Positions 46,311 to 64,000 of a stretch of DNA of 64,000 bases are shown here, in pieces; position 1 is the stretch's first letter; every line of letters begins with the position of its first letter. Below the pieces are notes generated by a model. It was not told the origin of the DNA, did no database searches, and was given only the letters and a program-made list of their open reading frames with translations. The translations under genes and the position numbers were made by a program. Source of the stretch: a virus. Lineage: Duplodnaviria > Heunggongvirae > Uroviricota > Caudoviricetes. The stretch lies in IMG/VR virus record IMGVR_UViG_3300009132_000002. One strand, given 5' to 3'.

Positions 46311-46317
46311 GTAATTT

Positions 46318-46958: not shown

Positions 46959-46993
46959 TTTCTTATTCCATTTATGTGTTACGAATTACTTTT

Positions 46994-47067: not shown

Positions 47068-47070
47068 TTA

Positions 47071-47163: not shown

Positions 47164-47168
47164 ATTTT

Positions 47169-47560: not shown

Positions 47561-47565
47561 ATAAT

Positions 47566-48159: not shown

Positions 48160-48630
48160 CTATTAGTGAGAAACCTATTAAGATGCGCTGCTCCAGTTGC
48201 TCCATATTTTGTTAAATACAGAATACAACACACCTTCTGTCTTTTGCCTTGCGGGCTACTTGACGTTACTTCGAGACTATTTCTCTAGTAATGCTATAAC
48301 GCCTTTCTACGCAAATAGTCAGACTATATAACTACCTGTTAGTATTCGACATTCAACGAATTGGTATGTCATAGCAAAACCACCACAGTTTTTTTAATCC
48401 TCAGCGATCGCCTCCGGACCTATCCTTTCGGACTATAACTTCGTTTTACTGCCTACCACCTATTACTAATAGATGGGCTTTCTTTCGGATTGGCATAAAT
48501 GCGTCCGAGTAAAGCTAACCCAGGCTTGTTTAGATGGACTCATATTGAGCGGTGACACTTAGGTATATCACCTTTGGGTGTATTGCTACACTTACCCTTT
48601 TTGTATGGATGCTAAACCACCCAGTAATTT

Positions 48631-48705
48631 TGGTATTCCGTAGGGGAATCGAACCCCTCTTTCCAGGTTGAAAACCTAGCGTCCTAACCGATAGACGAAC
48701 GGAAC
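48631..48705 (-). tRNA. tRNA-Glu (anticodon TTC)
   Basis: Acceptor GTTCCGT/ACGGAAT, loop TTTTCAA, T arm AGGGG-TTCGATT-CCCCT, CCA. Confidence 0.65.
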
Positions 48706-48750
48706 ATTATTTATATTATAGAGATATATTAAACTATTTTTACTAGATTG
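48700..48750 (-). promoter_or_regulatory. early promoter cassette for tRNA transcription; about 55-nt near-identical copy of the 50255 cassette
   Basis: Plus aaactatttttactagattgtaaacccctaaaatgtactttttt. Confidence 0.5.
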
Positions 48751-48783
48751 TAAACCCCTAAAATGTACTTTTTTATTTTTTAT

Positions 48784-48858
48784 TGGAGCGGGTAGTGGGA
48801 CTCGAACCCACGACCTTTTCATTGGCAACGAAATGCTCTACCTCTGAGCTACACCCGC
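48784..48858 (-). tRNA. tRNA-Gly (anticodon GCC)
   Basis: Acceptor GCGGGTG/TACCCGC, D arm GCTC-AGAGGTA-GAGC, anticodon arm TTTCG-TTGCCAA-TGAAA, T-loop GGTTCGAGT, CCA. Confidence 0.75.
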
Positions 48859-48989
48859 AATTTCCTTAATATACATGTTGCTAACAAACCTTGTGACCCG
48901 ATATGTTATTTCAGTCACCGCTTCTAGGTAATATCTAATACTGAAATCAAGTACTTAAAAATCAATATCACGATATACAACATGTATTT

Positions 48990-49064
48990 TGGCGACCATG
49001 ACGGGAATCGAACCCGCTGCGACAGCATAGACAGTGCTGCTTCCCACCATAGGAACCCATGGCC
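48990..49064 (-). tRNA. tRNA-Asp (anticodon GTC)
   Basis: Acceptor GGCCATG/CATGGTC, anticodon arm CAGCA-CTGTCTA-TGCTG, T-loop GGTTCGATT, discriminator G, CCA. Confidence 0.75.
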
Positions 49065-49509
49065 AATTAAATTCAGCTTTAACAAAGATACACTATCTAC
49101 TTCAAAACCAATCTTCAGTTATACAGAACCAACTGTACAGGGCAACTAAACCCTTAGTGTATCTATGATAGAGCATCTAAACTACCCGAACGGCGTATAG
49201 CCTATCCCCGTGCCAGTGGCAAAAATGATAGTGTAGATCCTTATTCGGTCCCATCAAATACGCTCCTACACTTCACGCCCTTTAGATCAGGCACTTTCTT
49301 GGAACGTATATGGTGGAACCGCTAGGTACTGCCTCAACAAAGATACACCACAAATGGTCTAGCCGTTCCACCCGAGGCCTCTAGTGTAGCGGGGTGGTGC
49401 ATCTTTATTGAGGCAGCTAAGTACTGCCTTAAAAAGATAACACTAAGAGCCCATATCTCCGATGAAGGAACGCTCCAAAGGGTGGGAATCGAACCCACTA
49501 GTGTTATTA

Positions 49510-49585
49510 TGGTGGAGAATAGCGGGCTCGAACCGCTGACCCTCTGCTTGCAAAGCAGATGCTCTCCCAACTGAGCTAATTCCCC
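49510..49585 (-). tRNA. tRNA-Ala (anticodon TGC)
   Basis: Acceptor GGGGAAT/ATTCTCC with G3-T70 pair, D arm GCTC-AGTTGGGA-GAGC, anticodon arm TCTGC-TTTGCAA-GCAGA, T-loop GGTTCGAGC, CCA. Confidence 0.75.
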
Positions 49586-49681
49586 ATTACTAAAAACACT
49601 TGCTGGACACCATGTTATCGTTCCAGGTTTACCTTGCGGCTCAGGTGATCCAATCCTTACGGTCTCGGACAAGTGTTATTT

Positions 49682-49757
49682 TGGAGCCCTTGACAGGAAT
49701 CGAACCTGTTATCTTCTGGTTACAAATCAGTTGCTTCGCCAGCAAAGCTTCAAGGGC
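49682..49757 (-). tRNA. tRNA-Thr (anticodon TGT), tentative; anticodon stem weak
   Basis: Acceptor GCCCTTG/CAAGGGC, D arm GCTT-TGCTGGCG-AAGC, loop TTTGTAA, T arm ACAGG-TTCGATT-CCTGT, CCA. Confidence 0.45.
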
Positions 49758-49769
49758 AATTGTAATTCT

Positions 49770-49843
49770 TGGTTGCGCCGGATGGATTTGACACCACCAG
49801 TTCAAGATTATGAGTCTTGCGTGTTACTTGACACTACTGCGCA
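49770..49843 (-). tRNA. tRNA with anticodon CAT (Met, fMet or Ile2), atypical T-loop
   Basis: Anticodon arm CAAGA-CTCATAA-TCTTG, D arm GTGT-CAAGTA-ACAC, T region GGTGG-TGTCAAAT-CCATC, CCA. Confidence 0.55.
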
Positions 49844-49850
49844 TCAATAT

Positions 49851-49932
49851 TGGTGCTAGCGGAAGGAATCGAACCTACTCCCCTTACGGAACCCGTTATG
49901 AGCGGGTGGCCTACCCAATTGGCATCACTAGC
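49851..49932 (-). tRNA. tRNA with anticodon CAT on a type-II-like body (3-bp D stem, 12-nt variable arm); unusual
   Basis: Acceptor GCTAGTG/CGCTAGC, D arm GCC-AATTGGGTA-GGC, anticodon arm ACCCG-CTCATAA-CGGGT, variable TCCGTAAGGGGA, T arm GTAGG-TTCGATT-CCTTC, CCA. Confidence 0.5.
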
Positions 49933-49942
49933 ATATTCTATT

Positions 49943-50027
49943 TGGTGCCTCCACCCAGACTCGAACTGGGACGCCCGAAGGCGGCAAATTTTAAGTCTGC
50001 TGCGTCTACCTATTTCACCATGGAGGC
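49943..50027 (-). tRNA. tRNA-Leu (anticodon TAA), type II
   Basis: Acceptor GCCTCCA/TGGAGGC perfect, anticodon arm GCAGA-CTTAAAA-TTTGC, variable arm hairpin CGCCTTCGGGCG, T arm CCCAG-TTCGAGT-CTGGG, CCA. Confidence 0.7.
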
Positions 50028-50035
50028 ATTATTTT

Positions 50036-50109
50036 TGGCATCGGTAAAAAGAATCGAACTCTTATCTGCGGGGTTGGAAGCCGCCGTGTTACCATTACAC
50101 TACACCGAC
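50036..50109 (-). tRNA. tRNA-Trp (anticodon CCA)
   Basis: D arm GTGT-AATGGTA-ACAC, anticodon arm GCGGC-TTCCAAC-CCCGC, T-loop AGTTCGATT, CCA. Confidence 0.65.
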
Positions 50110-50254
50110 TCTCTGTTTTCAATTACATACTTAGCAAATATGCACGTGAAAACAGAGATATTTTTCTGTTTCCAATCTATTATCGAGTTTCCTCTAAGAT
50201 CAAGCCCAAATTTTCAAATAACGTTGTAACAATTTTCTTTTTTGTTACTATAAA

Positions 50255-50300
50255 GATATACTAAACTATTTTTACTAGATTGTAAACCCCTAAAATGTAC
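50255..50300 (-). promoter_or_regulatory. early promoter cassette at the upstream end of the tRNA island
   Basis: Plus aaactatttttactagattgtaaacccctaaaatgtactttttt. Confidence 0.5.
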
Positions 50301-50325
50301 TTTTTTCACTTTTTTTTATTTTTTG

Positions 50326-50360
50326 CAAAAAAAAATCTCCTCAACTTACGTTGGGAGATT
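50326..50360 (-). terminator. minus-strand intrinsic terminator (AATCTCC / GGAGATT stem, then T9 on the minus strand)
   Basis: Plus caaaaaaaaatctcctcaacttacgttgggagatt. Confidence 0.55.
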
Positions 50361-50600
50361 CGAATGTTTAAAAGTTAATACTTTACTTTATTCGTGTATC
50401 CCCCATTCGGCAATCCCGCGATCTGTCTCAATCATAAACGCATAGCCGCAATTGGTCGCCGGTTTTACCGTCGATAATGGTTGCCATGAATTGAGTCTAT
50501 GTATTGAAAACATTTTTTCTTGTATCTCCTTTGATACTATTATATATACATTTTTTTAGTTATTTTGTACATAATATTATATTTTTTTTTTATTAAATTG

Positions 50601-50858
50601 CTAATAAACTGCTGCCCAAATATCAGCACTAAAGATGCGTAGCCTAGGATACATAGATATAATAATATCACGCGCAGTAATATCATACTTACATTTAAGA
50701 CAACTAATAGGACACTTAAGTATTATATCCTCAAAGACTTCATCTGGACAATTATCAACAGTATAAGGAATTAATAAACACTCTCCTGCTTTAGATTGTT
50801 CAATATTCGCTTCTTCACATTTTGGACATACAATTGTCACTTCATCAAACATACCCAT
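50601..50858 (-). CDS. zinc-ribbon protein (CxxC...CxxC...CxxC), 85 aa
   Basis: IVCPKCEE, CP...CLKCKYDI. Confidence 0.45.
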   Translation of the reverse strand: MGMFDEVTIVCPKCEEANIEQSKAGECLLIPYTVDNCPDEVFEDIILKCPISCLKCKYDITARDIIISMYPRLRIFSADIWAAVY

Positions 50859-51065
50859 TTTAAAATTGCTCCATTAAAGCTTTATTTTTTTCTTGTTAAA
50901 AGATCAAGAACGATAGTCAACTCATATATAGCTTTATCTAAAACTAAGTGAGCAGTTCTATTGTTGTTCTTTTTCTTTTCATCTCGTAGCATCTCTAGTC
51001 TTACTTTTATATATGCCTCTGTTTTATCACGCATATTTTGTATCTTTCTTAATTAACAAAACTTA

Positions 51066-51138
51066 GGCTCCGGCGGTAGGACTCGAACCTACTAGCAGTC
51101 GACTGCAGTCAATTGCTCTAGCCCAGTGCTACGCTGGA
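51066..51138 (-). tRNA. tRNA-like sequence with intact T arm and acceptor but disrupted anticodon arm (probable pseudogene); no CCA
   Basis: T arm GTAGG-TTCGAGT-CCTAC, acceptor TCCAGCG/CGCCGGA with one mismatch; internal direct repeat GACTGCAGTC-GACTGC where the anticodon arm should be. Confidence 0.35.
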
Positions 51139-51343
51139 ATAATTTAGGGTGGAGCCACCACAGTTGGACTCCAGTGTTAGGATTTCGACAAATAGGGTCT
51201 GTTTGCAACCATCCACCTAAAGTGTACCTAACTCTATGCAATTAGATAAATTTTGAAATACACGCGCCTTGATAACCTCTCGGCTCTTGTCCTATGCACA
51301 GGAAAGCAGGTGCATCTACTCCCGCGTGTACATCAAAATTTAT

Positions 51344-51420
51344 TGGCGGTCCCTGCAGGACTCGAACCTGCAACCTACTGCTTAGAAGGCAGTTGCTCTA
51401 TCCAATTGCGCTAAGGAACC
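51344..51420 (-). tRNA. tRNA-Arg (anticodon TCT), second copy with a different body
   Basis: Acceptor GGTTCCT/AGGGACC perfect, D arm GCGC-AATTGGATA-GAGC, anticodon arm ACTGC-CTTCTAA-GCAGT, T arm GCAGG-TTCGAGT-CCTGC, CCA. Confidence 0.7.
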
Positions 51421-52757: not shown

Positions 52758-53171
52758 TTATGCTGAGAAAAATTCTTTTGTCATGAGTCTTTGAAGCCTA
52801 AAAGCTTCTACTTCCCAAGGAAGCTCCTTGTAGGGAGTTTTTGTTGTGTCATACGTTTTACCCTTCCATGTTCGACCATCTTCATCTAAACGGCCGTCTA
52901 TGATTTGTTTTACGTGAACTAACTCATGAAATATGGTTTCTACCATATCAGAAGTATTTATATTAGAACTAATTTCAACTACATAATCTTCGTCTTCCAA
53001 ACCGTTACAATAACCCCAGACCTGTTTTCCAAGATCCGAAAGAAAAACTAACTTTATAATAAAGTCGTCATCCAATCCAAGATAATATTGTCCGAAACCA
53101 AGAATCTCATCAAGAAATTCCATTGAAATAGTTGATGGCTTATTGTCAATATAGTAATACATTTCTAACAC
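52758..53171 (-). CDS. hypothetical protein with HExxH motif (FHELVHVKQI), 137 aa
   Basis: ORF track; early promoter cassette upstream at about 53180-53215. Confidence 0.4.
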   Translation of the reverse strand: MLEMYYYIDNKPSTISMEFLDEILGFGQYYLGLDDDFIIKLVFLSDLGKQVWGYCNGLEDEDYVVEISSNINTSDMVETIFHELVHVKQIIDGRLDEDGRTWKGKTYDTTKTPYKELPWEVEAFRLQRLMTKEFFSA

Positions 53172-53189
53172 CTCTGTAGCTATAATAAA

Positions 53190-53225
53190 CTATTTTTCAG
53201 AGAATGTAAACCCCTTATGCACTAG
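53190..53225 (-). promoter_or_regulatory. early promoter cassette variant
   Basis: Plus gaatgtaaaccccttatgcac. Confidence 0.35.
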
Positions 53226-53889
53226 AAACTTTAGTTTTATCAAAAGGTTCTGGTTTATAATCTTTATTACGAGTACGTTTTGCTCTACGACCTTTATTAT
53301 TATCTCTTACTTCAACATTTTTTGGAAGGGGAATCTGAGATTTACCTACATCGTGGTAAAGTATAAATTGTGTATCCTTAAACTCATTAAAAATTCCATG
53401 CCAAATAGGTCTCCACTTAGATGTTAATCTCTGTGTATTTAAATTATCTCTAGCAGATTCCATAAAGGTATCAGACATACTTGTAGTATCAAATTCAAAG
53501 ATTGAGTCAAATCCATACATGTGAATTTCTTTACGTTTCAGTTTATTTGCGATCCAATGCGTTGCCATATGTCCACAATTAAAATCGGTATAATTCGGCG
53601 CATATTTCGGAAGTGTAAGATAAAATTCTTTAATCTGTTTTGAATATTTTACATAGAAATCATTTTTCATTTCCATCCATTTATGAGGTCTAGCACCGAG
53701 AACCCAATCCCCAGGTACTGTTATATTCTGCTTATGAATAGCATTCATCATTTTAAAATCAACCATAACAGTAGTATAAAGATTCTGCACCTCAAAAGGA
53801 GGAAGATTACAAGCAATCTTTAATCCTTTGGCGTGCTGATAAAAACCAGAACTTTTACCGTTTCCTATTAGATGTGCTACGTCACCCAT
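53215..53889 (-). CDS. putative glycosyltransferase, GT42 (CstII sialyltransferase)-like / DUF115-like
   Basis: N-terminal HLIGNGKSS (compare CstII IIAGNGPS) and CGHMATHWIANKLKRKEIHMYGFDS (compare CAVAIALGYKEIYLSGIDF). Confidence 0.45.
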   Translation of the reverse strand: MGDVAHLIGNGKSSGFYQHAKGLKIACNLPPFEVQNLYTTVMVDFKMMNAIHKQNITVPGDWVLGARPHKWMEMKNDFYVKYSKQIKEFYLTLPKYAPNYTDFNCGHMATHWIANKLKRKEIHMYGFDSIFEFDTTSMSDTFMESARDNLNTQRLTSKWRPIWHGIFNEFKDTQFILYHDVGKSQIPLPKNVEVRDNNKGRRAKRTRNKDYKPEPFDKTKVSSA

Positions 53890-53892
53890 AAA

Positions 53893-54579
53893 TTATCTCC
53901 AATAATCTTTAATCCAATCTTGTGGTTCAAATGTCTGCATAGGTGTAACCACTGTTTCATTCATTGCCTGAATAATACTAGGTCTCCCATGAAAGCATAC
54001 AATAGATGTATCTTTATCTAAACCTTTATTATATATCTGGTACTTATAGGACTTTAATTTGCCGGGATGTATCTTTTGTAACAGCTGTCTCTGATATTTT
54101 GGAACCGATGCATTTAAGTATTCTCCATCACCACGAAAAGATTTTACTGCCCAGTCTTTTCTTAATATAAATTCATTCCATATGCTTGCACCTACCATAG
54201 GAGTCCAAGACATTACTGCCGATTGTAATACATTTTTTAAATGCGGTTGATGTGAATTTACAGAACCAACATCTTCAATCCCAAGAAAATCTCCGTCATA
54301 TTTAAATAACCAATCAAGATCACCAGTAATTACAGTATCTAAGTCAAAGTAGAAACATCTATCACCTAGTTTATGAAATGTATCAAATAGTTGTAGTTTA
54401 TTCCACCAACCAGTAAATCCCGGTTTAAGTATTCTACAATCAAAACCTTTTCTATGTCTATCAGTAAGAACAACAAACTTATGCTCAACTGTAGTATTTC
54501 TCTTGATCATTGATCTAAGATTTTCAAGATATTCTATAGGAAACTTATCACCCCAATATACACATGCCACTGTAATCAT
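53893..54579 (-). CDS. putative GT-A fold glycosyltransferase (DXD: FDLDTVI)
   Basis: Nucleotide-diphospho-sugar transferase-like N-terminus (VACVYWGDKF) and a DxD motif. Confidence 0.45.
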   Translation of the reverse strand: MITVACVYWGDKFPIEYLENLRSMIKRNTTVEHKFVVLTDRHRKGFDCRILKPGFTGWWNKLQLFDTFHKLGDRCFYFDLDTVITGDLDWLFKYDGDFLGIEDVGSVNSHQPHLKNVLQSAVMSWTPMVGASIWNEFILRKDWAVKSFRGDGEYLNASVPKYQRQLLQKIHPGKLKSYKYQIYNKGLDKDTSIVCFHGRPSIIQAMNETVVTPMQTFEPQDWIKDYWR

Positions 54580-55229
54580 AATAAACTATATCCTTCTCCA
54601 TATCCATGTTTAGCTAAGCAACCTTCCACTTTTTGGATTGTTGAGAAATTTTCTTTTACTGAAATCGGCCAAGGATAAAATTCTTTTAGCCATGGAAAAT
54701 TATTATTATTAAAGAATATATCAGTAGGAGCCGCATCAGTTAAAGATTTTTCAAGAGCGGCTTTTGCTCCTTTTGGAGACATTACATATGCATGAGCACC
54801 TGGAAAATATTGTTTGGAAACTAAAGGTCCAATCCCAATGGATTGTGGAGTATTATATTTACCGTAAGATGGTTCCCCAAGAGAAACAATCATTTCGTTT
54901 CCATGCATTACATTAGTTGATATTGCATTATTAATTATAGCATCATGTTCGAGAATGAGATAGTTTTCTTTTCCTTTAGAACATAGCTCCCAAAGTGATC
55001 TATGAGATAAAAATGCAGATAAACAACTTTCATATCGTGAATATTTATTGTTCTCAAAGTTCTTTGTTGGAAGACCTTTATCTTTAAATAGTTTTACTGG
55101 GTCATCTTTCGGAGTGATACCAGAATGTTTTTTTACTATAAACCCATAACGACTTGCTGACTTTATACATCTTTCAGCTGCTTGCACAGACTCTTCAATG
55201 TTATCAACTGTTATAACAAAAGCTTTCAT
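54576..55229 (-). CDS. glycosyltransferase family 25-like (LPS beta-1,4-galactosyltransferase family), paralog 1
   Basis: MKAFVITVD...CLSAFLSHRSLWEL...YLILEHDA pattern; paralogous to 56572-57270 and 57815-58498. Confidence 0.55.
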   Translation of the reverse strand: MKAFVITVDNIEESVQAAERCIKSASRYGFIVKKHSGITPKDDPVKLFKDKGLPTKNFENNKYSRYESCLSAFLSHRSLWELCSKGKENYLILEHDAIINNAISTNVMHGNEMIVSLGEPSYGKYNTPQSIGIGPLVSKQYFPGAHAYVMSPKGAKAALEKSLTDAAPTDIFFNNNNFPWLKEFYPWPISVKENFSTIQKVEGCLAKHGYGEGYSLL

Positions 55230-55230
55230 T

Positions 55231-56028
55231 TTATAACCATCCAGATGCTTTTACAATTTTTCTTATATTACTATCCATTACGTCATTAAACTCTTCATCA
55301 GATTGTGGATATTTTAATCCTTCACTTAGTGCTCTACTAAAGCTTGCTGAGACTCCTCTATTCCGTGACATTCTTTTACATGCTTCTTTTGTGGAATATC
55401 CGCCACTGAGGAATACCACTTTGGCATTTGGTAGCAAAGTAAAATATTCATATAAATTTGGTTTTTCTGGTGGCGTAACTTTTAATATATACCGACCCTG
55501 AAACTTATTCAGTTTTGTTTCTAAATATGCTGATAAAAGATTTTCTATTTGCTCTTTCCAAGGATTGTCAATAGGAACTTCTGGTTCTATAATAGGAACT
55601 AATCCAGATTCTGCTATTTTTTCTGCATACATTATTTGTTGTTTTACTACTGGTATTACCATGTTTTCAGATATTACTATACTTCTCATTTTAGTTCCAA
55701 AACAACCATGATAGCAGGCGTATTGTATCATATCATCAACATCAAAAGGTTTTAAAGTTCCATCAGGTTCGCAGCCCTCATCAATCTTAATAATACTACG
55801 AATCCACTTTTTATCTAAAACATCAACAGCACCTCTTTCGACACTATCCTTATAAAGAATGGCACCATATATATTTTCACTTGTAAATTCTGGAGCAGAC
55901 ATCATTCTAAGACGAAACTCATGGATACGCTCCATTTTATTTTTCTCGTCCCATTCTCTATCATATAGATCAAGAACACCACCGGCACTACCACCACTAT
56001 TATCCATAGCTGCGATAAAATTACCCAT
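55231..56028 (-). CDS. class I fructose-bisphosphate aldolase-family protein (short, 265 aa)
   Basis: IAAMDNSGGS (compare ILAADESTG), IYGAILYKDSV (compare ISGVILFEETL), VVFLSGGYSTKEA (compare ITFLSGGQSEEEA). Confidence 0.55.
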   Translation of the reverse strand: MGNFIAAMDNSGGSAGGVLDLYDREWDEKNKMERIHEFRLRMMSAPEFTSENIYGAILYKDSVERGAVDVLDKKWIRSIIKIDEGCEPDGTLKPFDVDDMIQYACYHGCFGTKMRSIVISENMVIPVVKQQIMYAEKIAESGLVPIIEPEVPIDNPWKEQIENLLSAYLETKLNKFQGRYILKVTPPEKPNLYEYFTLLPNAKVVFLSGGYSTKEACKRMSRNRGVSASFSRALSEGLKYPQSDEEFNDVMDSNIRKIVKASGWL

Positions 56029-56042
56029 ATGTTTCTCCTGTT

Positions 56043-56381
56043 TTACTCATATGTTTCACCAGTTTCTCTAAAGAAGTTTCCGCTCCAGAAGGCCTTATCG
56101 TCTACCCATACGTCATAGTGTTCTTTTTCTCCAACACTTAATTCGTGATACTTAGCGCCCCAAGCCATTAGCTGCCGCCTAGTAAGCGGTTCATAATCTA
56201 TACCACTTGTAATACCGCGGGCAGTCATATATTTAATAGTGTGACCTAGGTCATATAATCTATTGATCTTTTCTATTCTATCCATATACGGGATATGGTT
56301 CTCATAATCTTTCTTACCACCACTATCTGGAATAATTACTTCTTTACAAATAGTTCCGTCAATATCAATTATATATTTCAT
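56043..56381 (-). CDS. small HAD-like phosphatase (112 aa)
   Basis: Motif I IIDIDGTI. Confidence 0.5.
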   Translation of the reverse strand: MKYIIDIDGTICKEVIIPDSGGKKDYENHIPYMDRIEKINRLYDLGHTIKYMTARGITSGIDYEPLTRRQLMAWGAKYHELSVGEKEHYDVWVDDKAFWSGNFFRETGETYE

Positions 56382-56569
56382 TCCATTAGCCTTTGCGCAG
56401 TTGTTTGCTTATAATCATATTCTTCTCTTATTTCAGGCTCATCACTCATTTTTTCAACCGTGTAAAGAGCTGAATGTCCTAAGTCTTTACACGCCAATGC
56501 TTCAGCATCTTCCTTTGTTGAACACATCGCAGTAATTTCACCATTTATTCGTTTTTTTACAGCCCACAT
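56378..56569 (-). CDS. hypothetical protein (63 aa)
   Basis: ORF track; ATGA coupling. Confidence 0.35.
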   Translation of the reverse strand: MWAVKKRINGEITAMCSTKEDAEALACKDLGHSALYTVEKMSDEPEIREEYDYKQTTAQRLME

Positions 56570-56571
56570 TT

Positions 56572-57270
56572 TTAACTCCTTGTAGTAGTTGATTTAAGAC
56601 CTTGTATATGAGTATAGAATTTTCTAGTTACTCCTAATCCATTTACAAGTTGTCGACACATAAGTGCATCATTCGGCCACATGCCATATCTATAAACCAA
56701 AGAAATCATTTGTTCTGCTCCTTCTGGTTTTATAAGGTATGCTGAGTTTCCAGCAAGTCCTTGAGGAACTTTCATATCCTCATCCACGTAAGGTGTTAGC
56801 TGAAATGCTTGTTTATTTTTTACTACCGTATTATAATATTCTCTTGCCCTACGAGTAGCACCAAGAGGATTATTTAAACCAACAATATCGAACCCCGTAT
56901 CATCTGGTATAAAATCTATTTTTTGAGCAAAATAAGCATCATGCTCTAATATGATAATAGGCTGTCTTCTTTCAAAGCAGAGTTGCCATAAGTAAAAATG
57001 GCTCATGGCACATGCCATTCTTGCCTTTGGATTAGCAGTTATATAGGCATGCTTTGTAAGACCTGTTGAAAAATCCACAACAGAACCTTCCCAAGGATAG
57101 TTCCATGTAACATCTTGATCTCGCATATCTTTTTCAACGGTATCAGGAGTAATGGCTTTAAACTGTTTTAGTTTAAATTCATTACCTACATCATATGAAC
57201 TTTTAGCTAAAGCGGCATATCCAAATTCAGATATTTCATTACCTTCAATTACTATAGCATAAGCTTCCAT
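56572..57270 (-). CDS. glycosyltransferase family 25-like, paralog 2
   Basis: MEAYAIVIEGN...CAMSHFYLWQLCFERRQPIIILEHDAYF. Confidence 0.55.
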   Translation of the reverse strand: MEAYAIVIEGNEISEFGYAALAKSSYDVGNEFKLKQFKAITPDTVEKDMRDQDVTWNYPWEGSVVDFSTGLTKHAYITANPKARMACAMSHFYLWQLCFERRQPIIILEHDAYFAQKIDFIPDDTGFDIVGLNNPLGATRRAREYYNTVVKNKQAFQLTPYVDEDMKVPQGLAGNSAYLIKPEGAEQMISLVYRYGMWPNDALMCRQLVNGLGVTRKFYTHIQGLKSTTTRS

Positions 57271-57281
57271 TTTAAAACCTA

Positions 57282-57602
57282 TTATCCTTTCTCATCAGTA
57301 TGGAACAAAATTCTATAATTTGGCCAATACGTTTGTGGTTTACACTGACAATAGTCATCAACATCACCAACAATATTTGGCACTTTCATAATCTCATAAT
57401 CAACACCCATTTTATAATTTCGTAATGCTAATATTATCTGGTGTCTAACCTCAGAATAATCATAAGAACTATTATTCGTATCCCTAACTTGAATGAGTAT
57501 TTGTCCTGTTTGTTTCCAAGCTTCCTCGAATATTTCAGTATCTTCTTTTTCCCAAGGTGCCCTTGCTAGCATTTGAATTGTTGGCTTTTGATAATCAAAC
57601 AT
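57282..57602 (-). CDS. hypothetical protein (106 aa)
   Basis: ORF track. Confidence 0.4.
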   Translation of the reverse strand: MFDYQKPTIQMLARAPWEKEDTEIFEEAWKQTGQILIQVRDTNNSSYDYSEVRHQIILALRNYKMGVDYEIMKVPNIVGDVDDYCQCKPQTYWPNYRILFHTDEKG

Positions 57603-57605
57603 TAT

Positions 57606-57750
57606 TTTTTCCCATTATAAAATTTCTTTTTCTTAATAAAATCTATAGAAATATAAATTCCAAGAATTATGAAACAACCAATGATCCAAATTGGCCAAAT
57701 CATATTAATGAATGTTCTATGCATCTTCTTCTTGTATTCAATAGTCATTA
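57606..57750 (-). CDS. small membrane protein (about 48 aa), below ORF-track cut-off
   Basis: MTIEYKKKMHRTFINMIWPIWIIGCFIILGIYISIDFIKKKKFYNGKK; early promoter cassette at about 57770-57795 points at it. Confidence 0.3.
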
Positions 57751-57764
57751 TTCTTTATACCACA

Positions 57765-57800
57765 GTTACGAGTAAAAGTAAACCCCTAAAATGCATTTAG
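57765..57800 (-). promoter_or_regulatory. early promoter cassette
   Basis: Plus gtaaaagtaaacccctaaaatgca. Confidence 0.4.
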
Positions 57801-57814
57801 CATAAGCTTCCATT

Positions 57815-58498
57815 TTAAAATCCGTGACTCATATTTAAATTTTTTAAAGTAAAAGTAAAATACTCAGGAACTACATATTGAATGTGAACATTGTGTGTAT
57901 TGATAAAAAAGTCACTTTGTTCCCATCCATGTTTCTTAACGGCACTTAGAAGCTTTTTGGCTCCTTTTGGATTAATTGCATAAGCAGCTGTTCCAGGAAT
58001 CATTAAAGAGTTCTTCCAAGTTCTGTTTGGATGTCTATATGGAATAGGAGAATCATTATAATCATTAATTCCTAATCTCCAAGAATTATTATAACCTAAA
58101 CTACTAAGGTGTTTAAACACTTGTTGTTTAAAAGCGCTTTCAATGTTTAATATTAACAATTCATCAAAAATATTATTTTTCCAAGGCCGAATGCAATCTG
58201 AATCTTGTTCTATAAATGCAACCGGTTCATTTAATTCGATGCATTTTTTCCATACTCTTATATGATTATTAAAACATGATTTCTTAGTTCTATATATCCC
58301 ATTTTTATCTTCTTTAAAAAAAGCGGCAGCTCTTGAACCTTCCGCAGTTGGTATATCATCGTAACTATCTAATGTTTCAGGTGTAACCCCTTTTATGGGT
58401 TCTACATCCCATCCATACCGTTTGCAACTTTCCATACAATATTTCATATAAGATTCTGAAGCTTTATGACCTTCTACATATATCACAAACGTTTTCAT
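57815..58498 (-). CDS. glycosyltransferase family 25-like, paralog 3
   Basis: MKTFVIYVEGH...VAFIEQDSD pattern similar to the other two paralogs. Confidence 0.55.
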   Translation of the reverse strand: MKTFVIYVEGHKASESYMKYCMESCKRYGWDVEPIKGVTPETLDSYDDIPTAEGSRAAAFFKEDKNGIYRTKKSCFNNHIRVWKKCIELNEPVAFIEQDSDCIRPWKNNIFDELLILNIESAFKQQVFKHLSSLGYNNSWRLGINDYNDSPIPYRHPNRTWKNSLMIPGTAAYAINPKGAKKLLSAVKKHGWEQSDFFINTHNVHIQYVVPEYFTFTLKNLNMSHGF

Positions 58499-59055
58499 CT
58501 TTTAAACCTATAGATTTTTGAATTTTTTTCTTTATTTTTAAAAGCTCCAATAAAGGTTAATCCAACATTAGTGGCCAATTCTAAAAGTTCTTGTTCACTT
58601 AACTCTAAAGGATCTGTAGATCTTGAAAGATTATTTTCTCCCCATCCCCATTCAATATATAATGATCCATTGGGTAAAAGCTGATCAGCCCAAGTCTGAA
58701 TGCATTTTTGAGGATCATAAGAATGATCAAATGAGTTTGAATATACTATATTAAATTTATTAAGCCATTCTTCTTTTGGTTCGTGAAAATCATGCTGTAT
58801 AGTCATCGGAAACTGAGATGCCGTATGAGATATTTCAGTTCCAATTATTTCTGCCATTTTAAAATGATCTTTAAAATACTCTTGTTCTCTTGCATTTCTA
58901 GTGCCATGGCAAAGGATTGCTGATGCTGTAAAATTTTCTTTACAGATTTTATTAATCACATCTTTTCTAACCCACACAGCTTTTAATTTTTTAACATTAG
59001 CCCGAGTTTGTTCAGAAACATATTCTTCATAATTTTTATACTTATAAATTTTCAT
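58495..59055 (-). CDS. putative class I SAM-dependent methyltransferase
   Basis: ILCHGTRNAREQ, NIVYSNSFDH, LLPNGSLYI motif-like segments. Confidence 0.4.
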   Translation of the reverse strand: MKIYKYKNYEEYVSEQTRANVKKLKAVWVRKDVINKICKENFTASAILCHGTRNAREQEYFKDHFKMAEIIGTEISHTASQFPMTIQHDFHEPKEEWLNKFNIVYSNSFDHSYDPQKCIQTWADQLLPNGSLYIEWGWGENNLSRSTDPLELSEQELLELATNVGLTFIGAFKNKEKNSKIYRFKR

Positions 59056-59056
59056 A

Positions 59057-59653
59057 CTATTTCCTTTTTATAGTAGCATGACCACATTTTCCAAGAGTAT
59101 AATGTTCATACATTCTCCACTCTTTATGTTCTTTTAAAAAAGTTTCCACTACTTTCCAAAGTTGAAATTGTGTTCCATTCATTGGGTTTCCAAGCTTTGT
59201 GTCATGTAAAGTAATAAATTTAGAAACACTTTTATGATGCAAATATAGTTCTTTTTTTAGGTGTTGTGGATTGTGCCAGCTATCAATATGTAGAAGATCA
59301 ACTTCTCGCACACTTTCTTCACTTATAGAGCTTGCTTCAATTAGTTCAAAGTTTATGTTATTCTTATCAGCATACTCCTGAAATATTTTTTTGAGTTTAG
59401 GAGTAAATCTATTTAAATTAATATCAACACCGTGAATACTTTTTATTCCTTGTTGCATAAAAAGTGCCATAGTCCTACCCTGAAAAACACCTAGTTCAGA
59501 AACGGTTTCTACTTTTTTTCCAAGTTTTATTAAATGCTTATATCTCTCAGTATCATGAATTCCATTGTCTGTGGCAGTGAATATTTCTTCATTAAGAATA
59601 AACTGACTCAAGTCCTCTAGTGAATTAAATACACTATAGTCACCTTCTTTCAT
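59057..59653 (-). CDS. TylF/MycF/CmcI-family (Methyltransf_24-like) sugar O-methyltransferase
   Basis: VSELGVFQGRT (motif I), LLHIDSWH, ITLHD. Confidence 0.5.
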   Translation of the reverse strand: MKEGDYSVFNSLEDLSQFILNEEIFTATDNGIHDTERYKHLIKLGKKVETVSELGVFQGRTMALFMQQGIKSIHGVDINLNRFTPKLKKIFQEYADKNNINFELIEASSISEESVREVDLLHIDSWHNPQHLKKELYLHHKSVSKFITLHDTKLGNPMNGTQFQLWKVVETFLKEHKEWRMYEHYTLGKCGHATIKRK

Positions 59654-59996
59654 TGCTCTTTACCTCTTTTATATCTTTATTGAAGAATTTAAATTGTAAC
59701 TTCTTCTTTATTTCATATCTTTCACTATTTAATTCATCTATTACTGATGCTAGTATTAGATTAGGATCTTTTCTTATTATTTCAAGCTTATCATAAATTT
59801 CTTCATTTAATCTAATAAGTTCTTTATATTCTTCTGATTCAATAATATCATGAAACTTAATTCCTAATTGAAATTCTAAGCTGTCATAATAAAAAACAAG
59901 TTGTTCTTTCGCGCCATTTAATTTTTTCTTTGCTTTTACTACTGCAATGCTTAAAAAATCAAATGCAAATGCTTCATCAACTTCAATAGTAACCAT
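59640..59996 (-). CDS. hypothetical protein (118 aa)
   Basis: ORF track. Confidence 0.4.
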   Translation of the reverse strand: MVTIEVDEAFAFDFLSIAVVKAKKKLNGAKEQLVFYYDSLEFQLGIKFHDIIESEEYKELIRLNEEIYDKLEIIRKDPNLILASVIDELNSERYEIKKKLQFKFFNKDIKEVKSNERR

Positions 59997-60651
59997 GCGA
60001 CAAATACCTATTATAATTTTTCCAAGTACCCAAATCTATATATTTACCGCCTTGGACAGTAGTAAATTTAAAACTATTAACAATTGTACCGACTTCACTA
60101 TATCTATTAAATAGCCCTTGTTTAATAGCATCACTTATATTTTGTCCGTCAAATTTTAATATTCCCCAAAAATTTTCAGTAGTGTTCATATCTAATTCTG
60201 TTTTTACATAAAATTTTTCACCAAATTTATCTAACCTATCAACTTTAGATTCGGAATCTGTTACAAATAATCCGGCTACCACACCACTTTCTTTAACCAT
60301 CTGAATGTATAAATTATCTTCAAAAATGGTATCTGGCATTCCAAATAAAACTATATCATTTTCCTTTATGTTTTCTATTCTATATGCTTCATATAAAACG
60401 TTTGCAAACCCTGTTTTGGATTGCTTATAATGTTTATACTCATTAGCGGTATAGAAAGAAGTGACATCTATTTTAAAATCATCACCGTGTATAAAAATTA
60501 TTTTTTCTGCTCCGGCTTCAAGCATTTTATTAACTAAATGATTTGATATCGGATTATATAAACTTGTATCTTTTTGAGGTAACATTTCTTTTGAAAAAGT
60601 TAACCCTAATCTTGTTCCTAATCCGCCTATTGGTACAACGCCCACAATCAT
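59983..60651 (-). CDS. sugar-1-phosphate nucleotidyltransferase (GalU/RmlA-type), short form
   Basis: N-terminal VVPIGGLGTRLGLTFSKEMLPQ matches the G-x-G-T-R-x(8)-K-x-x-L-P signature of glucose-1-phosphate uridylyl/thymidylyltransferases. Confidence 0.55.
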   Translation of the reverse strand: MIVGVVPIGGLGTRLGLTFSKEMLPQKDTSLYNPISNHLVNKMLEAGAEKIIFIHGDDFKIDVTSFYTANEYKHYKQSKTGFANVLYEAYRIENIKENDIVLFGMPDTIFEDNLYIQMVKESGVVAGLFVTDSESKVDRLDKFGEKFYVKTELDMNTTENFWGILKFDGQNISDAIKQGLFNRYSEVGTIVNSFKFTTVQGGKYIDLGTWKNYNRYLSHGYY

Positions 60652-61355
60652 AATATCTTGCTTTCTCTTAACATTTTTTCAATAGTTTTATAATTATTTG
60701 TTAAAACACCATCACCATGATAATTATGGTGTTGTCTTGTTCTTATCAAAAGTTTATTTTCTATTTTATCTATAAGACAAGAACGAAGGTGAGATTCTAT
60801 GGCACCGCCCCAATCATTATCATTTCTAACAGTCATTGGTAATGGAAATAAATGCTCTATACTATTTGGAACAAATGATAATATACTAGCATTAGGATAG
60901 TAATTGCCTTTCTTATTTTTATTTTTTCTTATACCAGTTCCAAATTGTGCATATGCTAAATCATAGTTTGATTGACTTAAAATTCTAAGAGTTTCTCCTG
61001 TAGTAAAGAAATGATCTTCAGCTAATAATAATACTTTTTCATTTAGACCTCTTACTTTATTAAATATGGAGTTATACCCCTCAGTAAATATTTGAAGATT
61101 TCTTTTACCTGGAGATCCCGATGTTATTTCATCATTATCAATTTCTGGACTAGTGTTAGTGTTATTTTTAAGTTGAGTTTTTTCATAAAAAATATGATTT
61201 ACATTTTCAATCTTATCAAGAGAATTATATTCGGATTTATGATTATCATAAAAACATAGACATCTTATATCAGCATCAGGAATAAAATGTCTTATACTTT
61301 TCACTGTAAGATTAAGTGTTTTATTTCTAAAATAATTTCTTAAATATATGATCAT
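60648..61355 (-). CDS. hypothetical protein, possibly GT-A-like transferase
   Basis: ORF track; cluster context; LLLAEDHFF acidic motif. Confidence 0.35.
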   Translation of the reverse strand: MIIYLRNYFRNKTLNLTVKSIRHFIPDADIRCLCFYDNHKSEYNSLDKIENVNHIFYEKTQLKNNTNTSPEIDNDEITSGSPGKRNLQIFTEGYNSIFNKVRGLNEKVLLLAEDHFFTTGETLRILSQSNYDLAYAQFGTGIRKNKNKKGNYYPNASILSFVPNSIEHLFPLPMTVRNDNDWGGAIESHLRSCLIDKIENKLLIRTRQHHNYHGDGVLTNNYKTIEKMLRESKIL

Positions 61356-62020
61356 TTATTTACCATTTTTTTAAAAAAATGACCTCTTCTGTTACTACCA
61401 TCTAAATGTTTAACTGTGGCAGGTAAATTAACTGTCCCGTATATCGAACCTTTAAAGTTTTCTACTGCAGTTAAATTCTGTTCAACACCACCTCTTTGAC
61501 CTTCTGGTGGAACAGTTATATGCGGAAGACCTTTCTTTATAAATTTTTCTCTATGTATTAAATGAGGATTATTTGATACTGCATCTGTCAAACAATAATC
61601 GTTTTTTATGATAAGATTTTTATCCCACTTGATTGCTAATGTTTGCCTTTTATTAAATCTCATGTGGATTAAATTATTATCATTCATAATTTTACAAATA
61701 TTATCTAAACTATGTGATATATGTTTTTTATTAAAAATCCAATCATGTTCTAACATAAATAAGAAATCGCTTTTAGATTCATTAACTGCTCTAATATATC
61801 CATCTGCAAAACAAGTTGTAGTATTTACCTTTGTAAAAATACTTTTAAGGTTTTTTTCATATATTTTAAATGATGATTTATTTGGTTTTGGGTCGCACCA
61901 AACAGTAGCATTCATACTACCAAAAGTTTCACAAAAGCTATTATATGTTGTTTTTATAGTATCAATATTTGGTGCATATTGTGTACAATTTGTGAAGATA
62001 TGAAGTTCTATATTATACAT
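61352..62020 (-). CDS. hypothetical protein, possibly transferase
   Basis: ORF track; cluster context; FMLEHDWIF. Confidence 0.35.
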   Translation of the reverse strand: MYNIELHIFTNCTQYAPNIDTIKTTYNSFCETFGSMNATVWCDPKPNKSSFKIYEKNLKSIFTKVNTTTCFADGYIRAVNESKSDFLFMLEHDWIFNKKHISHSLDNICKIMNDNNLIHMRFNKRQTLAIKWDKNLIIKNDYCLTDAVSNNPHLIHREKFIKKGLPHITVPPEGQRGGVEQNLTAVENFKGSIYGTVNLPATVKHLDGSNRRGHFFKKMVNK

Positions 62021-62021
62021 T

Positions 62022-63167
62022 TTACCACTTTGGAGAATTTAATATAACATCTTTATTAACTTTTTCCTTTGTGGAATCAGCAATAAAGAGAATGTCGTCA
62101 ATTAAACCATCACTTAACAATGTTGGTTTAAAACCTAAAGAAATAAGACCAGAGTTTTCAACCTCTAACTCATTCTTTGTAAGTTCCTTTCTTGGGTTTT
62201 CAAGATAATTTATCTCAACGTTGGCTTTTGATGAAATCATTTCGGCTAATTCTTTAACTGATCTTGTTTCAGCCACTTGGTTAAATATTCTCACTCTTTC
62301 AGTGTTATCAGGTCTATTTTCTAATGCAAGTTGTATACACTTAACACTATCTTTAATGTGTATAAAAGCTCTTGTTTGCCCACCAGTTCCGTAAACTGTT
62401 ATATTGTTTCCACTAGCCGCTTGCGAAATAAATCTGTTTAAAACCGTACCATATAATCCATCATAATCAAATCTATTAATGAGTTTATCATCTGCCTTTG
62501 TTTCGTCTGTTTGTACACCCCAAACCACACCTTGATGCAAATCTGTTATTGCTAAATTCCAATTCTTATTATAAAATTGAAATAGTATTTGATCTAAACT
62601 TTTTGTCATATGGTAAACACTACCGGGGTTTGTAGGATATAAAATATCCACATCCTTTTGTGTAGAATTAATCTTAATATTTAAATAACCTTCCGGCAGT
62701 TTTCCAAAGTCTTTACTATATCCATATACACCCATTGTACCAAGATGCACTAAATGAATATTTTTATCAACTTCTACAATAGCATTAAGAATATTATGCG
62801 TTGCACTTATATTTTTATCAACAGTTGATCTTCTTTCTCTTTCACCTAACATTGAATATGGTGCAGATTTTAATTCAGCTAAGTGAACTACTGCATCAGG
62901 CATGTACTTCTTAAATATATTTTCTAATCTTAAGTAATCTCCAGCAATATCACAAAACTCAAAATTTATTTTTCCAAAAATATTTTTTGCAGTTTTAAGT
63001 CTTACACCTATTGATTCAAGATCAGTTAAACTGTTACTTGACATTTCATCATCAAGTGCTCTGCGTGAAAAATTATCAACAATTGTAACCTCATGGCCTG
63101 CTGAAACTAATTTTAAGGTTGTTGGCCATCCACAAAATCCATCGCCTCCGAGCATTAATATTTTCAT
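62022..63167 (-). CDS. sqdB: UDP-sulfoquinovose synthase (SqdB/SQD1) homolog, SDR-family sugar-nucleotide enzyme
   Basis: Full-length collinear match to plant SQD1: MKILMLGGDGFCGW (SQD1 VMVIGGDGYCGW), APYSM, HLVHLGTMGVYG, DLHQGVVWGVQTDET (SQD1 DLNQGVVYGVKTDET), FDYDGLYGTVLNRFISQAASG..ITVYGTGGQTRAFIHIKDSVKCIQLAL. Confidence 0.8.
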   Translation of the reverse strand: MKILMLGGDGFCGWPTTLKLVSAGHEVTIVDNFSRRALDDEMSSNSLTDLESIGVRLKTAKNIFGKINFEFCDIAGDYLRLENIFKKYMPDAVVHLAELKSAPYSMLGERERRSTVDKNISATHNILNAIVEVDKNIHLVHLGTMGVYGYSKDFGKLPEGYLNIKINSTQKDVDILYPTNPGSVYHMTKSLDQILFQFYNKNWNLAITDLHQGVVWGVQTDETKADDKLINRFDYDGLYGTVLNRFISQAASGNNITVYGTGGQTRAFIHIKDSVKCIQLALENRPDNTERVRIFNQVAETRSVKELAEMISSKANVEINYLENPRKELTKNELEVENSGLISLGFKPTLLSDGLIDDILFIADSTKEKVNKDVILNSPKW

Positions 63168-63943
63168 TCAACTAATTCCCTCAATTGTTCCACATTCTCA
63201 CCTCTATTTGGAAGATGATCTTTTAAGAAGAAATGAACAAAGTGGCATTCTTTAATGCGAGTATTAGCAGTAAACAATCCGTTCCATCTCCAGTCCATAT
63301 TTTTAATTTTCATATTTTCTTCACGAATCCATGTATTTAATAGTGTTTGATCGGTAGACCATTTCCAAGCACCCATACCATCAACAAATGGTTTAAACTC
63401 TGGTCGCCGAATAAACTGTGTTGGAGTTTCTCCTCTTAGATATTTTTGGATCTTTTGGTTCATAACCATAATACCCATATTCATAAACTCAGCACCAAGA
63501 TTATTCCATTTCCAATCCACTTTCTTAATAGTCTGATATTGCATACGTGAATAGTTTGCAATCTTACCTTTATACTGATTTGTAATAGGCATCTCACGTT
63601 CCACAACACCACCAAAATCATACTGTGGTTCTAAATCATCAAAGATATTTGGAGCACCAGGACGAATCCATACATCAGCATCTACTATAGCTACTTGATC
63701 ATATGACTTAAGATATGAGAAGGCATTTTCTTTTTCATAGATTGGTAAGTAACCACCATGTTTTTCATATGATTCTCGGCTACGGTTTGTTACAAACACG
63801 TCTGGTTTAATCATGAGTATGGGAGTTTTTTGTACTTCGTGTACGATACCGTGTGCTTTACAGTATTCTGCTACTGAGTTAACACAATGGTCATAGAGTT
63901 TTGAACGCTTTCCAACGTACACCTGATAAATCAATCGTTTCAT
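63164..63943 (-). CDS. putative GT-A glycosyltransferase (DXD: IVDADVWI)
   Basis: ORF track; DxD motif; sigma70-like promoter at about 63975-64000 upstream. Confidence 0.45.
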   Translation of the reverse strand: MKRLIYQVYVGKRSKLYDHCVNSVAEYCKAHGIVHEVQKTPILMIKPDVFVTNRSRESYEKHGGYLPIYEKENAFSYLKSYDQVAIVDADVWIRPGAPNIFDDLEPQYDFGGVVEREMPITNQYKGKIANYSRMQYQTIKKVDWKWNNLGAEFMNMGIMVMNQKIQKYLRGETPTQFIRRPEFKPFVDGMGAWKWSTDQTLLNTWIREENMKIKNMDWRWNGLFTANTRIKECHFVHFFLKDHLPNRGENVEQLRELVE

Positions 63944-63969: not shown

Positions 63970-64000
63970 ATTATATACTATTATCTATATAATGTAAATA
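63970..64000 (-). promoter_or_regulatory. sigma70-type promoter (TTTACA-N17-TATAAT) in front of the glycosylation-cluster genes
   Basis: Minus strand ATTTACATTATATAGATAATAGTATATAAT. Confidence 0.45.

Follow-up and report, generated by a model that had tools for sequence, protein, structure and literature searches.

We describe here an island of co-oriented genes for the synthesis and transfer of sugars in a 64-kb stretch of genome ("the window") from an uncultured marine T4-like phage, IMG/VR record IMGVR_UViG_3300009132_000002. Between positions 53215 and 63943, the open reading frame (ORF) listing contains 17 ORFs of at least 60 amino acids (aa), all on the minus strand. A 48-aa hydrophobic ORF raises the count to 18, the number of co-oriented, coupled genes that a first-pass annotation of the sequence had placed there. 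Most of the genes overlap or lie 1-3 nt apart: ATGA overlaps (-4) are found at seven junctions, 14-nt overlaps at two, spacers of 1-3 nt at five, and spacers of 11 nt and 14 nt at one each. Only one spacer is long (212 nt), and it is here that the 48-aa ORF lies. The region is rich in A and T, with a GC content of 0.275-0.34 and the minimum across 58-62 kb. Its features are collected in Table 1. Most of the earlier inventory holds, including a homolog of the uridine diphosphate (UDP)-sulfoquinovose synthases SqdB and SQD1 and a series of predicted transferases. The earlier idea that these genes together serve to make an unusual sugar, sulfonated and methylated, and to transfer it is likewise supported.

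Table 1. Features of the island, its flanks and the promoter-like motif (window coordinates)
Feature	Coordinates	Strand	Length	Description
g01	63164..63943	-	259 aa	GT8-like retaining GT-A transferase; DxD = VDADVW; first island gene
g02	62022..63167	-	381 aa	predicted SqdB/SQD1-family UDP-sulfoquinovose synthase
g03	61352..62020	-	222 aa	unassigned glycan-synthesis domain, conserved L-E-H-D-W; possible transferase
g04	60648..61355	-	235 aa	GT-A transferase, GT8-like fold, invariant E113-D114 (structure prediction)
g05	59983..60651	-	222 aa	sugar-1-phosphate nucleotidyltransferase, GalU-like N-terminus (GGLGTRL...KEMLP)
g06	59640..59996	-	118 aa	conserved partner of g04 and g05
g07	59057..59653	-	198 aa	probable class-I S-adenosylmethionine (SAM) methyltransferase, CmcI/Methyltransf_24-like
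g08	58495..59055	-	186 aa	possible methyltransferase
g09	57815..58498	-	227 aa	GT25 transferase; Pfam PF01755 41.1 bits (cutoff 24)
Indel cassette	57255..57820	-		48-aa hydrophobic ORF (57602-57748) and g10 (57282-57602, 106 aa)
g11	56572..57270	-	232 aa	GT25 transferase; Pfam PF01755 52.4 bits (cutoff 24)
g12	56378..56569	-	63 aa	no family matches
g13	56043..56381	-	112 aa	small HAD-like protein, DIDGT motif
g14	55231..56028	-	265 aa	short bacterial-type class-I fructose-bisphosphate aldolase
g15	54576..55229	-	217 aa	GT25 transferase; Pfam PF01755 31.6 bits (cutoff 24)
g16	53893..54579	-	228 aa	GT8 glycogenin-like transferase; DxD = FDLDTV
g17	53215..53889	-	224 aa	transferase, sialyltransferase/Maf (MptE-like) fold; conserved last island gene
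g18	52758..53171	-	137 aa	HExxH-motif protein; own promoter-like site at 53182-53210
Sigma70-like promoter TTTACA-N17-TATAAT	63970..63998	-		ends some 27 nt ahead of g01
Further motif sites	6198-6226, 10964-10992, 44660-44688, 53182-53210 and others			window-wide

The SqdB homolog and the adjoining transferase

The g02 protein aligns over its full length with Arabidopsis SQD1 (1QRR; phmmer E=3.2e-83, residues 2-381 against 3-382), which bears out the homology named in the first-pass annotation. It has the NAD motif GGDGFCGW (7-14), GTMG at 143-146 (with T144) and YHMTK at 185-189 (with Y185, H186 and K189). The fingerprint is intact, its residues aligning with T145, Y182, H183 and K186 of SQD1. 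This TMG...YxxxK fingerprint distinguishes UDP-sulfoquinovose synthases from other sugar-nucleotide dehydratases (PMC8987622). The identity of g02 to bacterial SqdB proteins is 52-62%. Its score on the NCBIfam equivalog UDPsulfquin_syn (NF041015), 344.1 bits, is under the cutoff of 575, but this is still by far its best family (E=1e-102). Judged by alignment and motifs, g02 is a genuine member of the SqdB/SQD1 family and a predicted UDP-sulfoquinovose synthase.

The first gene of the island, g01, overlaps the start of the SqdB gene by 4 nt. Its Pfam GT8 match (16.3 bits) is under the cutoff, and its family profile finds the GT8 domain of LARGE1 (6e-5), then WbbM, A64R of the chlorovirus PBCV-1, and LgtC. 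By hhalign, the g01-type GT8-like family is related to the SqdD-like GT8 protein of Rhodovulum (86% probability, E=5.5e-6). Across the viral loci, a paralog of the GT8-like family F0 flanks SqdB upstream in 14 cases and downstream in 25. We consider g01 a candidate sulfoquinovosyltransferase. No GT4 domain, the family to which SqdX belongs, was found in the island by Pfam.

Neither the island proteins (tblastn) nor hidden Markov models (HMMs) of the families F0, F14, F26, F2 and F8 found any match at 80 cellular sqdB loci, which shows that the island was not taken over whole from a cell.

Transferases and other enzymes of the island

The island encodes three GT8-like GT-A transferases (g01, g04 and g16), and the three GT25-like transferases of the first-pass annotation all exceed the Pfam cutoff. 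For g16, the family profile reaches glycogenin at E=1e-8 and LgtC at 1e-3. Searches of PDB with the g04 and g17 sequences and profiles came up empty, and the folds of both proteins were assigned from structure prediction. The g04 model resembles chlorovirus A64R, as does the family profile of g01. For g17, described earlier as a GT42 (CstII)-like transferase, the likeness holds at the level of fold but not of sequence: the model has the variant GT-A fold of sialyltransferases and Maf proteins, with Maf as the best fold match, whereas membership in GT42 finds no support in Pfam, NCBIfam or PDB sequence searches, which gave only an MptE-like hit at E=0.19. Among GenBank phage records, only C48C1 and DSL-LC06 have g17 homologs, the one in DSL-LC06 being annotated as a sialyltransferase.

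The domain of g03 occurs in 200 representative clusters and, in longer proteins, is fused with GT2, GT25, rhamnosyltransferase, pyruvyltransferase or methyltransferase domains. A sequence and profile search of PDB with g03 found no match. We also considered g03 as a paralog of the sulfotransferases described below and rejected this assignment.

The nucleotidyltransferase g05 matches NCBIfam galU (E=8e-5) and, over residues 4-70 only, GalU in PDB (E=0.02); its companion g06 has no significant PDB match. Both of the methyltransferases proposed earlier fall under Pfam cutoffs. In the case of g07, the match is 19.1 bits and its relatives weakly match RMNT_CmcI and Methyltransf_24, so that a class-I SAM methyltransferase is probable, if weakly so. 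In the case of g08, a Methyltransf_31 match of 17.7 bits (E=0.003) is accompanied by no match for its relatives, and the evidence for a methyltransferase, which is possible, is very weak.

The small HAD-like protein g13 matches PDB 9IQW (E=8e-10), deposited as "capsule biosynthesis protein", for which we found no accompanying paper, and 1XPJ (E=0.003). The aldolase g14 matches PDB 2IQT (E=7e-43) and Pfam Glycolytic (29.6 bits, over the cutoff); on NCBIfam PRK05377 it scores 217 bits, under the cutoff of 392. The earlier calls of a class-I aldolase-family protein and a small HAD protein thus stand. Elsewhere in the window, between gp46 and gp45, a 401-aa ORF (6234-7439, minus strand) has a Pfam PEPCK_ATP match; together with the class-I fructose-bisphosphate aldolase of the island, it could allow the phage to drive gluconeogenic flux to hexoses.

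In each of the 17 island proteins of at least 60 aa, the maximum 19-residue Kyte-Doolittle mean is at most 1.5, and by this measure none of them has a membrane segment. Pfam families for components of Wzx/Wzy- or ABC-type systems (initiating phosphoglycosyltransferase, flippase, polymerase, ligase) are absent from the island.

Viral relatives and modular variation

An SqdB protein identical to g02 is encoded on 14 marine metagenome contigs, and IMG/VR holds 79 loci with SqdB homologs at 41-68% identity, several of them on contigs of 140-150 kb. In a neighbor-joining tree, the window SqdB falls within a clade of 32 viral sequences, the sister of which is the SqdB of the alphaproteobacterium Paramylibacter ulvae. 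At least 32 viral contigs of IMG/VR carry this clade, and it sits there inside syntenic islands with variable cassettes. GenBank phage records contain neither an SqdB ortholog nor a g01 homolog; megablast of the island against 50,697 such records gave no match, and PHROGs made almost no assignments.

The Paramylibacter ulvae gene (NZ_BMZF01000002.1, 8001-13600; locus L087) encodes the closest cellular SqdB, with 62% identity, and is a lone plus-strand gene. Its neighbors encode two Stf0 sulfotransferases and an 895-aa GT4/GT2 protein, and the locus is not a sulfolipid operon but possibly one for a bacterial sulfo-glycan.

Mapping of gene families shows a conserved frame in which SqdB is accompanied by GT8-like paralogs, of which a locus has at most four, by GT25 genes, two or three in number, by the glycogenin-like GT8, by the g17 family and by the HExxH protein g18, which is a conserved neighbor of the island in relatives. 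The variable cassettes set into this frame include genes for a sulfotransferase, a radical-SAM enzyme, a fusion of HAD and nucleotidyltransferase domains, and methyltransferases of the FkbM and class-I types. The block g03-g08 is specific to the window phage and near-identical strains. In four of these strains (L001, L004, L005 and L006), a sulfotransferase gene is inserted between g01 and SqdB; its product on L001 (2320-2988) is a 222-aa Sulfotransfer_2 protein (Pfam 29 bits, cutoff 22). The sulfotransferase recurs in the divergent viral islands L027, L043, L046, L081 and L085.

Gain and loss are also visible at the indel cassette. Exact 23-bp direct repeats, TTTTAAAATGGAAGCTTATGCTA, at 57255-57277 and 57798-57820, each with a g11 start codon, bracket an insertion of 543 bp that is missing from strain contig L001, which thus represents the empty site. 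Between L001 and the window, g01-g09 are 98-100% identical and g11-g15 only 88-93%, with g13 and g14 differing in length. This mosaic divergence, as seen in the sequence comparison, suggests recent recombination within the island.

Parts of the island also occur without SqdB. A 21-kb portion that we read of L171, a 99-kb Tara Oceans contig, has no SqdB and carries two modules within 631-4802 and 9521-11728. The first comprises genes for a 2-oxoglutarate-Fe(II) oxygenase, a truncated UDP-glucose dehydrogenase, and GT25, GT8-like, g17-like and g18-like proteins. The second is a contiguous set of HAD, g04-like, g05-like and g06-like genes, in which the copy of g13 is 82% identical and adjoins the homologs of g04, g05 and g06. 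Since these modules are shared, the island is assembled from portable modules. Because g05 travels with g04, g06 and the HAD gene in L171, it probably serves g04 rather than SqdB. Of the earlier GalU/RmlA-type assignment, the N-terminal GalU motif stands, while the idea that the enzyme feeds SqdB is doubtful.

Promoter motif and timing of expression

The sigma70-like motif TTTACA-N17-TATAAT occurs 10 times in the window when one mismatch is allowed. The expectation is 2.2+-1.4, so that the enrichment is about fivefold, and none of 100 shuffles reaches 10. Copies precede gp45, the ORF at the gp55 position, g18 and g01; they are intergenic and lie ahead of early-type genes. On strain contig L001 the motif also precedes g01, and a second copy in the same intergenic region faces the opposite way. 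We regard the motif as a candidate early-promoter consensus of this phage. The T4 late motif TATAAATA is found on the coding strand ahead of structural genes, with zero copies in the island. In relatives, the island abuts genes for ribonucleotide reductase (RNR), RNase H, PhoH, a PD-(D/E)XK nuclease and a 5'-nucleotidase (NT5C) without a gap. Taken together, motif and gene order suggest that the island is probably transcribed early.

The gene upstream of the island lies past the right edge of the window. On L001 (2-1363) it encodes a large protein, of 453 aa or more, that contains FG-GAP repeats (34.5 bits on Pfam), in the position that nucleotide-metabolism genes occupy in relatives.

The phage and the rest of the window

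T4-like core genes in the window encode the gp21 protease, the scaffold protein, gp23, UvsY, UvsW, gp46, gp47, gp45, gp44, gp62 and RegA. Its capsid protein shares 66% identity with its counterpart in Phage C48C1 (Kyanoviridae), 61% with the one in Pelagibacter phage HTVC008M and 60.7% with the one in OM43 phage Melnitz; by these identities, the phage is akin to pelagimyophages and Kyanoviridae. An 837-aa protein encoded in the window is not on record. With T4 proteins as tblastn queries, gp46 and gp47 were confirmed, gp47 spanning 9270-10331. The gp55 position is taken by a 200-aa ORF (10338-10940) that begins at 10940, not at 10331 as annotated earlier; the T4 gp55 query gave no BLAST match in the window, so the gp55 call is positional only.

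ARAGORN finds an array of 26 tRNA genes on the minus strand (41665-51420). Within it lies a GOLLD RNA (47766-48236, minus strand; Rfam RF02032, 183.5 bits, gathering score 150) with tRNA-Ser(tga) inside (48095-48169). Two Rfam "tRNA-Sec" matches on the minus strand (44795-44883 and 47075-47163; 52.2 and 47.9 bits, gathering score 47) were not called by ARAGORN and may be long-arm tRNAs rather than selenocysteine tRNAs. Between the gene at the portal position and the head genes, a minus-strand ORF (19429-25221) encodes a 1930-aa protein rich in Ser, Thr, Gly, Asp and Asn, which could be a fiber or decoration protein and a possible target of glycosylation.

Discussion

The gene content of the island lies outside the canonical T4 repertoire, as the first-pass annotation stated, yet lipopolysaccharide (LPS)-type islands have already been described in marine T4-like phages: the Prochlorococcus phage P-SSM2 has 24 "LPS genes" (PMC1079782), and pelagimyophages carry GT8-rich sets of glycosyltransferase genes (PMC7029224). 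Like the island, these clusters belong to T4-like marine myophages, place co-oriented epimerase, transferase and synthase genes in variable regions and feature GT8 prominently, and their proposed role is to alter the surface of the host, by which coinfection would be avoided (PMC1079782, PMC7029224). What sets the island apart is a predicted UDP-sulfoquinovose synthase and, in some strains, sulfotransferases, which neither report mentions (PMC1079782, PMC7029224). Judged by its genes, the island belongs with the LPS-type glycan islands of marine T4-like phages.

Remodeling of host LPS, listed as an alternative in the first-pass annotation, has become the best reading of the island. In the form that we tentatively favor, at somewhat less than an even chance, the phage extends a glycolipid of the host envelope with a sulfonated, methylated oligosaccharide. 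We infer the acceptor, the product, the export route and the benefit to the phage as follows. Lying beside SqdB, g01 would most likely transfer sulfoquinovose. Further residues would be added by the two other GT8-like enzymes, the three GT25 enzymes and the sialyltransferase/Maf-like enzyme, and the glycan would be capped by one or two methyltransferases, in some strains also by the sulfotransferase. A separate portable module, consisting of the small HAD protein, a GT-A transferase, the GalU-like nucleotidyltransferase and the 118-aa protein, would activate and add one more sugar, and the class-I aldolase may push carbon to hexose phosphates. Because the 17 proteins are predicted to be soluble and the island lacks genes for a flippase, a polymerase or a ligase, the acceptor would most likely be a lipid-linked host glycan of the outer-core type of LPS or lipooligosaccharide (LOS), located on the inner membrane's cytoplasmic face. 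Export would be left to the host's own machinery. The resulting anionic, methylated surface would block the adsorption of competing phages or of the phage's own progeny.

The combination of GT8, GT25 and GT42-like transferases is the enzyme set that builds the LOS outer cores of Neisseria, Haemophilus and Campylobacter, exemplified by LgtC (GT8), LgtB, LgtE and Lic2A (GT25), and CstII and Lic3A (GT42). As in the island, the three families occur together there, the enzymes are soluble or peripheral and work without Wzx or Wzy, and the loci vary between strains; the absence of hydrophobic segments from the island proteins fits such LOS-type assembly at the cytoplasmic face. The differences are that those systems are cellular and that the likeness is remote, at the level of fold or profile for GT8 and GT42 and of Pfam for GT25. 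Moreover, sulfoquinovose is not known from the LOS structures of these three genera. Together with the LOS-type set of soluble enzymes, it is the probable early expression and the variation in the style of antigen loci that lead us to favor an envelope glycolipid. The swapping of cassettes and the gain or loss of the sulfotransferase and the 543-bp cassette between strains resemble, by analogy, what is seen at surface-antigen loci. The context of the closest cellular SqdB, that of Paramylibacter ulvae, is not a lipid operon and also counts in favor of a glycan. So do the sequence evidence that SqdB is authentic, with a whole viral clade sharing it, and the interpretation published for the LPS-type clusters of P-SSM2 and pelagimyophages, which agrees with our reading (PMC1079782, PMC7029224).

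Several points weigh against this reading. The GT8 and GT25 families do not reveal the acceptor, and both include members that glycosylate proteins (glycogenin, Skp1 GalT and collagen GalT). The g01 profile and the predicted g04 structure resemble A64R, an enzyme of capsid glycosylation in chloroviruses. In the 17 island proteins we found no signal for association with a membrane. The assignment of early promoters is based on a motif that relatives do not conserve ahead of their islands, and the nucleotide-metabolism genes found there could equally suggest a role related to DNA.

In another reading, an oligosaccharide with sulfoquinovose and methyl groups would be built on the phage's own macromolecules, be it virion proteins or, least likely, DNA bases, an outcome that we regard as doubtful. 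Virion proteins by themselves are an unlikely destination in our view. The model is chlorovirus PBCV-1, where A064R and partners, soluble virus-encoded GT-A transferases and methyltransferases, work without lipid carriers; in the same way, soluble phage enzymes would build the sulfonated, methylated glycan directly on capsid, fiber or decoration proteins. The solubility of all enzymes, the lack of lipid-carrier machinery, and the encoding of a nucleotide sugar pathway and methyltransferases in the island itself are in line with this, as are the remote likeness to A64R, the fold of g17, which is matched best by Maf proteins, enzymes whose acceptor is a protein (flagellin), and the presence of the 1930-aa Ser/Thr-rich ORF in the head-gene region. 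PBCV-1, however, infects eukaryotes and its capsid target is proven, whereas for the island neither a target nor a sequon was identified and expression appears to be early: the promoter is of the early type, the late motif is absent, and in relatives the island lies among early nucleotide-metabolism genes. GT8, GT25 and GT42 together are also more typical of LOS than of protein glycosylation. A collagen-like target of the GT25 enzymes is ruled out for the window, which encodes no proteins with G-X-Y repeats, the 1930-aa ORF included.

The glycan might also be attached to DNA, as the first-pass annotation preferred. Here a sulfonated oligosaccharide would be placed on a modified base and protect against host nucleases, comparable to the glucosylation of hydroxymethylcytosine in T4 by gp42, alpha-gt and beta-gt. 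Like the T4 enzymes, those of the island would be early phage-encoded transferases of UDP-sugars; in relatives the island directly follows the genes for RNR, RNase H, the PD-(D/E)XK nuclease and the 5'-nucleotidase, and a base-hydroxymethylating enzyme could be encoded outside the 64 kb of genome that are visible. Nevertheless, tblastn with T4 gp42, gp56, alpha-gt and beta-gt matched neither the window nor any of the 79 related viral loci, while gp44, regA, gp46 and gp47, used as controls, did match. Marine cyanophages, moreover, are listed without gene 42 and alpha-gt (PMC2993671). The empty alpha-gt slot, put forward earlier as evidence, is uninformative because it is common to almost all relatives outside the T-even group, alpha-gt being confined to T-even type phages (PMC2993671). 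The GT8, GT25 and sialyltransferase-like families are unlike known DNA glycosyltransferases, known DNA sugars have one to three residues as against seven or eight enzymes here, and cassette-type variation with LOS-type families favors a surface glycan. DNA hypermodification is thus very improbable.

Sulfoquinovose itself suggests a different role, in membrane lipids. The pathways with SqdB, SQD1 or Agl3 comprise the synthesis of plant and cyanobacterial sulfolipid, the Rhodobacter sqdBDC operon and the N-glycan of Sulfolobus. With SQD1, g02 shares the full-length alignment and the fingerprint, and the adjoining GT8-like gene recalls the sqdB-sqdD arrangement of alphaproteobacteria: in Rhodovulum, the genes that come after sqdB encode a GT8 protein (34.5 bits on Pfam) and a short-chain dehydrogenase/reductase (SDR). 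SqdB and its GT8-like neighbor might therefore act like SqdB and SqdD and make sulfoquinovosyl diacylglycerol or a related sulfoglycolipid, either to spare phosphorus or to stabilize the membrane in the course of infection. This would agree with the hhalign relationship to the Rhodovulum protein, with the GT8-like paralogs that usually flank viral SqdB, with PhoH upstream in relatives, and with a viromics study of coastal water in which viral SQD1 is grouped with other auxiliary genes of high expression and roles connected with the membrane are suggested (PMC13288924). But the seven or eight transferases and the methyltransferases exceed what a sulfolipid needs, and mainly because of the number of transferases we consider a sulfolipid improbable. 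In addition, a GT4 synthase of the SqdX type is missing, the likeness to SqdD is at the GT8-family level only, with no match in the surroundings of cellular sqdB genes by BLAST or HMM, and the closest cellular SqdB lies outside any lipid operon. The second SDR of some relatives, which we considered as SqdC and rejected, is not SqdC-like. The SqdB gene is embedded in a multi-transferase island, and sulfoquinovose is probably passed to a glycan, not to diacylglycerol.

An envelope glycolipid of the host thus remains our preferred destination of the glycan. Knowledge of LPS-type islands in T4-like phages of the sea goes back to 2005; what is new is the conserved viral clade of SqdB, its embedding in a modular island of LOS-type transferases, and the recurrent sulfotransferase partners. 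Viral UDP-sulfoquinovose synthases have been reported before, as a putative enzyme in a Mu-like contig from the Cariaco Basin (PMC7785012) and in the coastal viromics study (PMC13288924), but these reports are at the level of catalogues, without genomic context, T4-like lineage or an associated transferase island.

The island also bears on the wider occurrence of sulfonated sugars. Sulfoquinovose is known mainly from photosynthetic membrane lipids and an archaeal N-glycan, and a monophyletic SqdB clade, set in the transferase islands of ocean myophages that are abundant but uncultured, would suggest that viruses are a source of sulfonated glycans. Should the glycan be placed on the phage's own macromolecules, this would be the first case of a bacteriophage that makes a sulfonated glycoconjugate autonomously. 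The modular build of the island and its variation between strains suggest an arms race over a surface structure. To the long-standing proposal that marine T4-like phages alter the surface of their hosts, the island would add a concrete and testable chemistry, which the defined gene pair g01-g02 makes straightforward to test.

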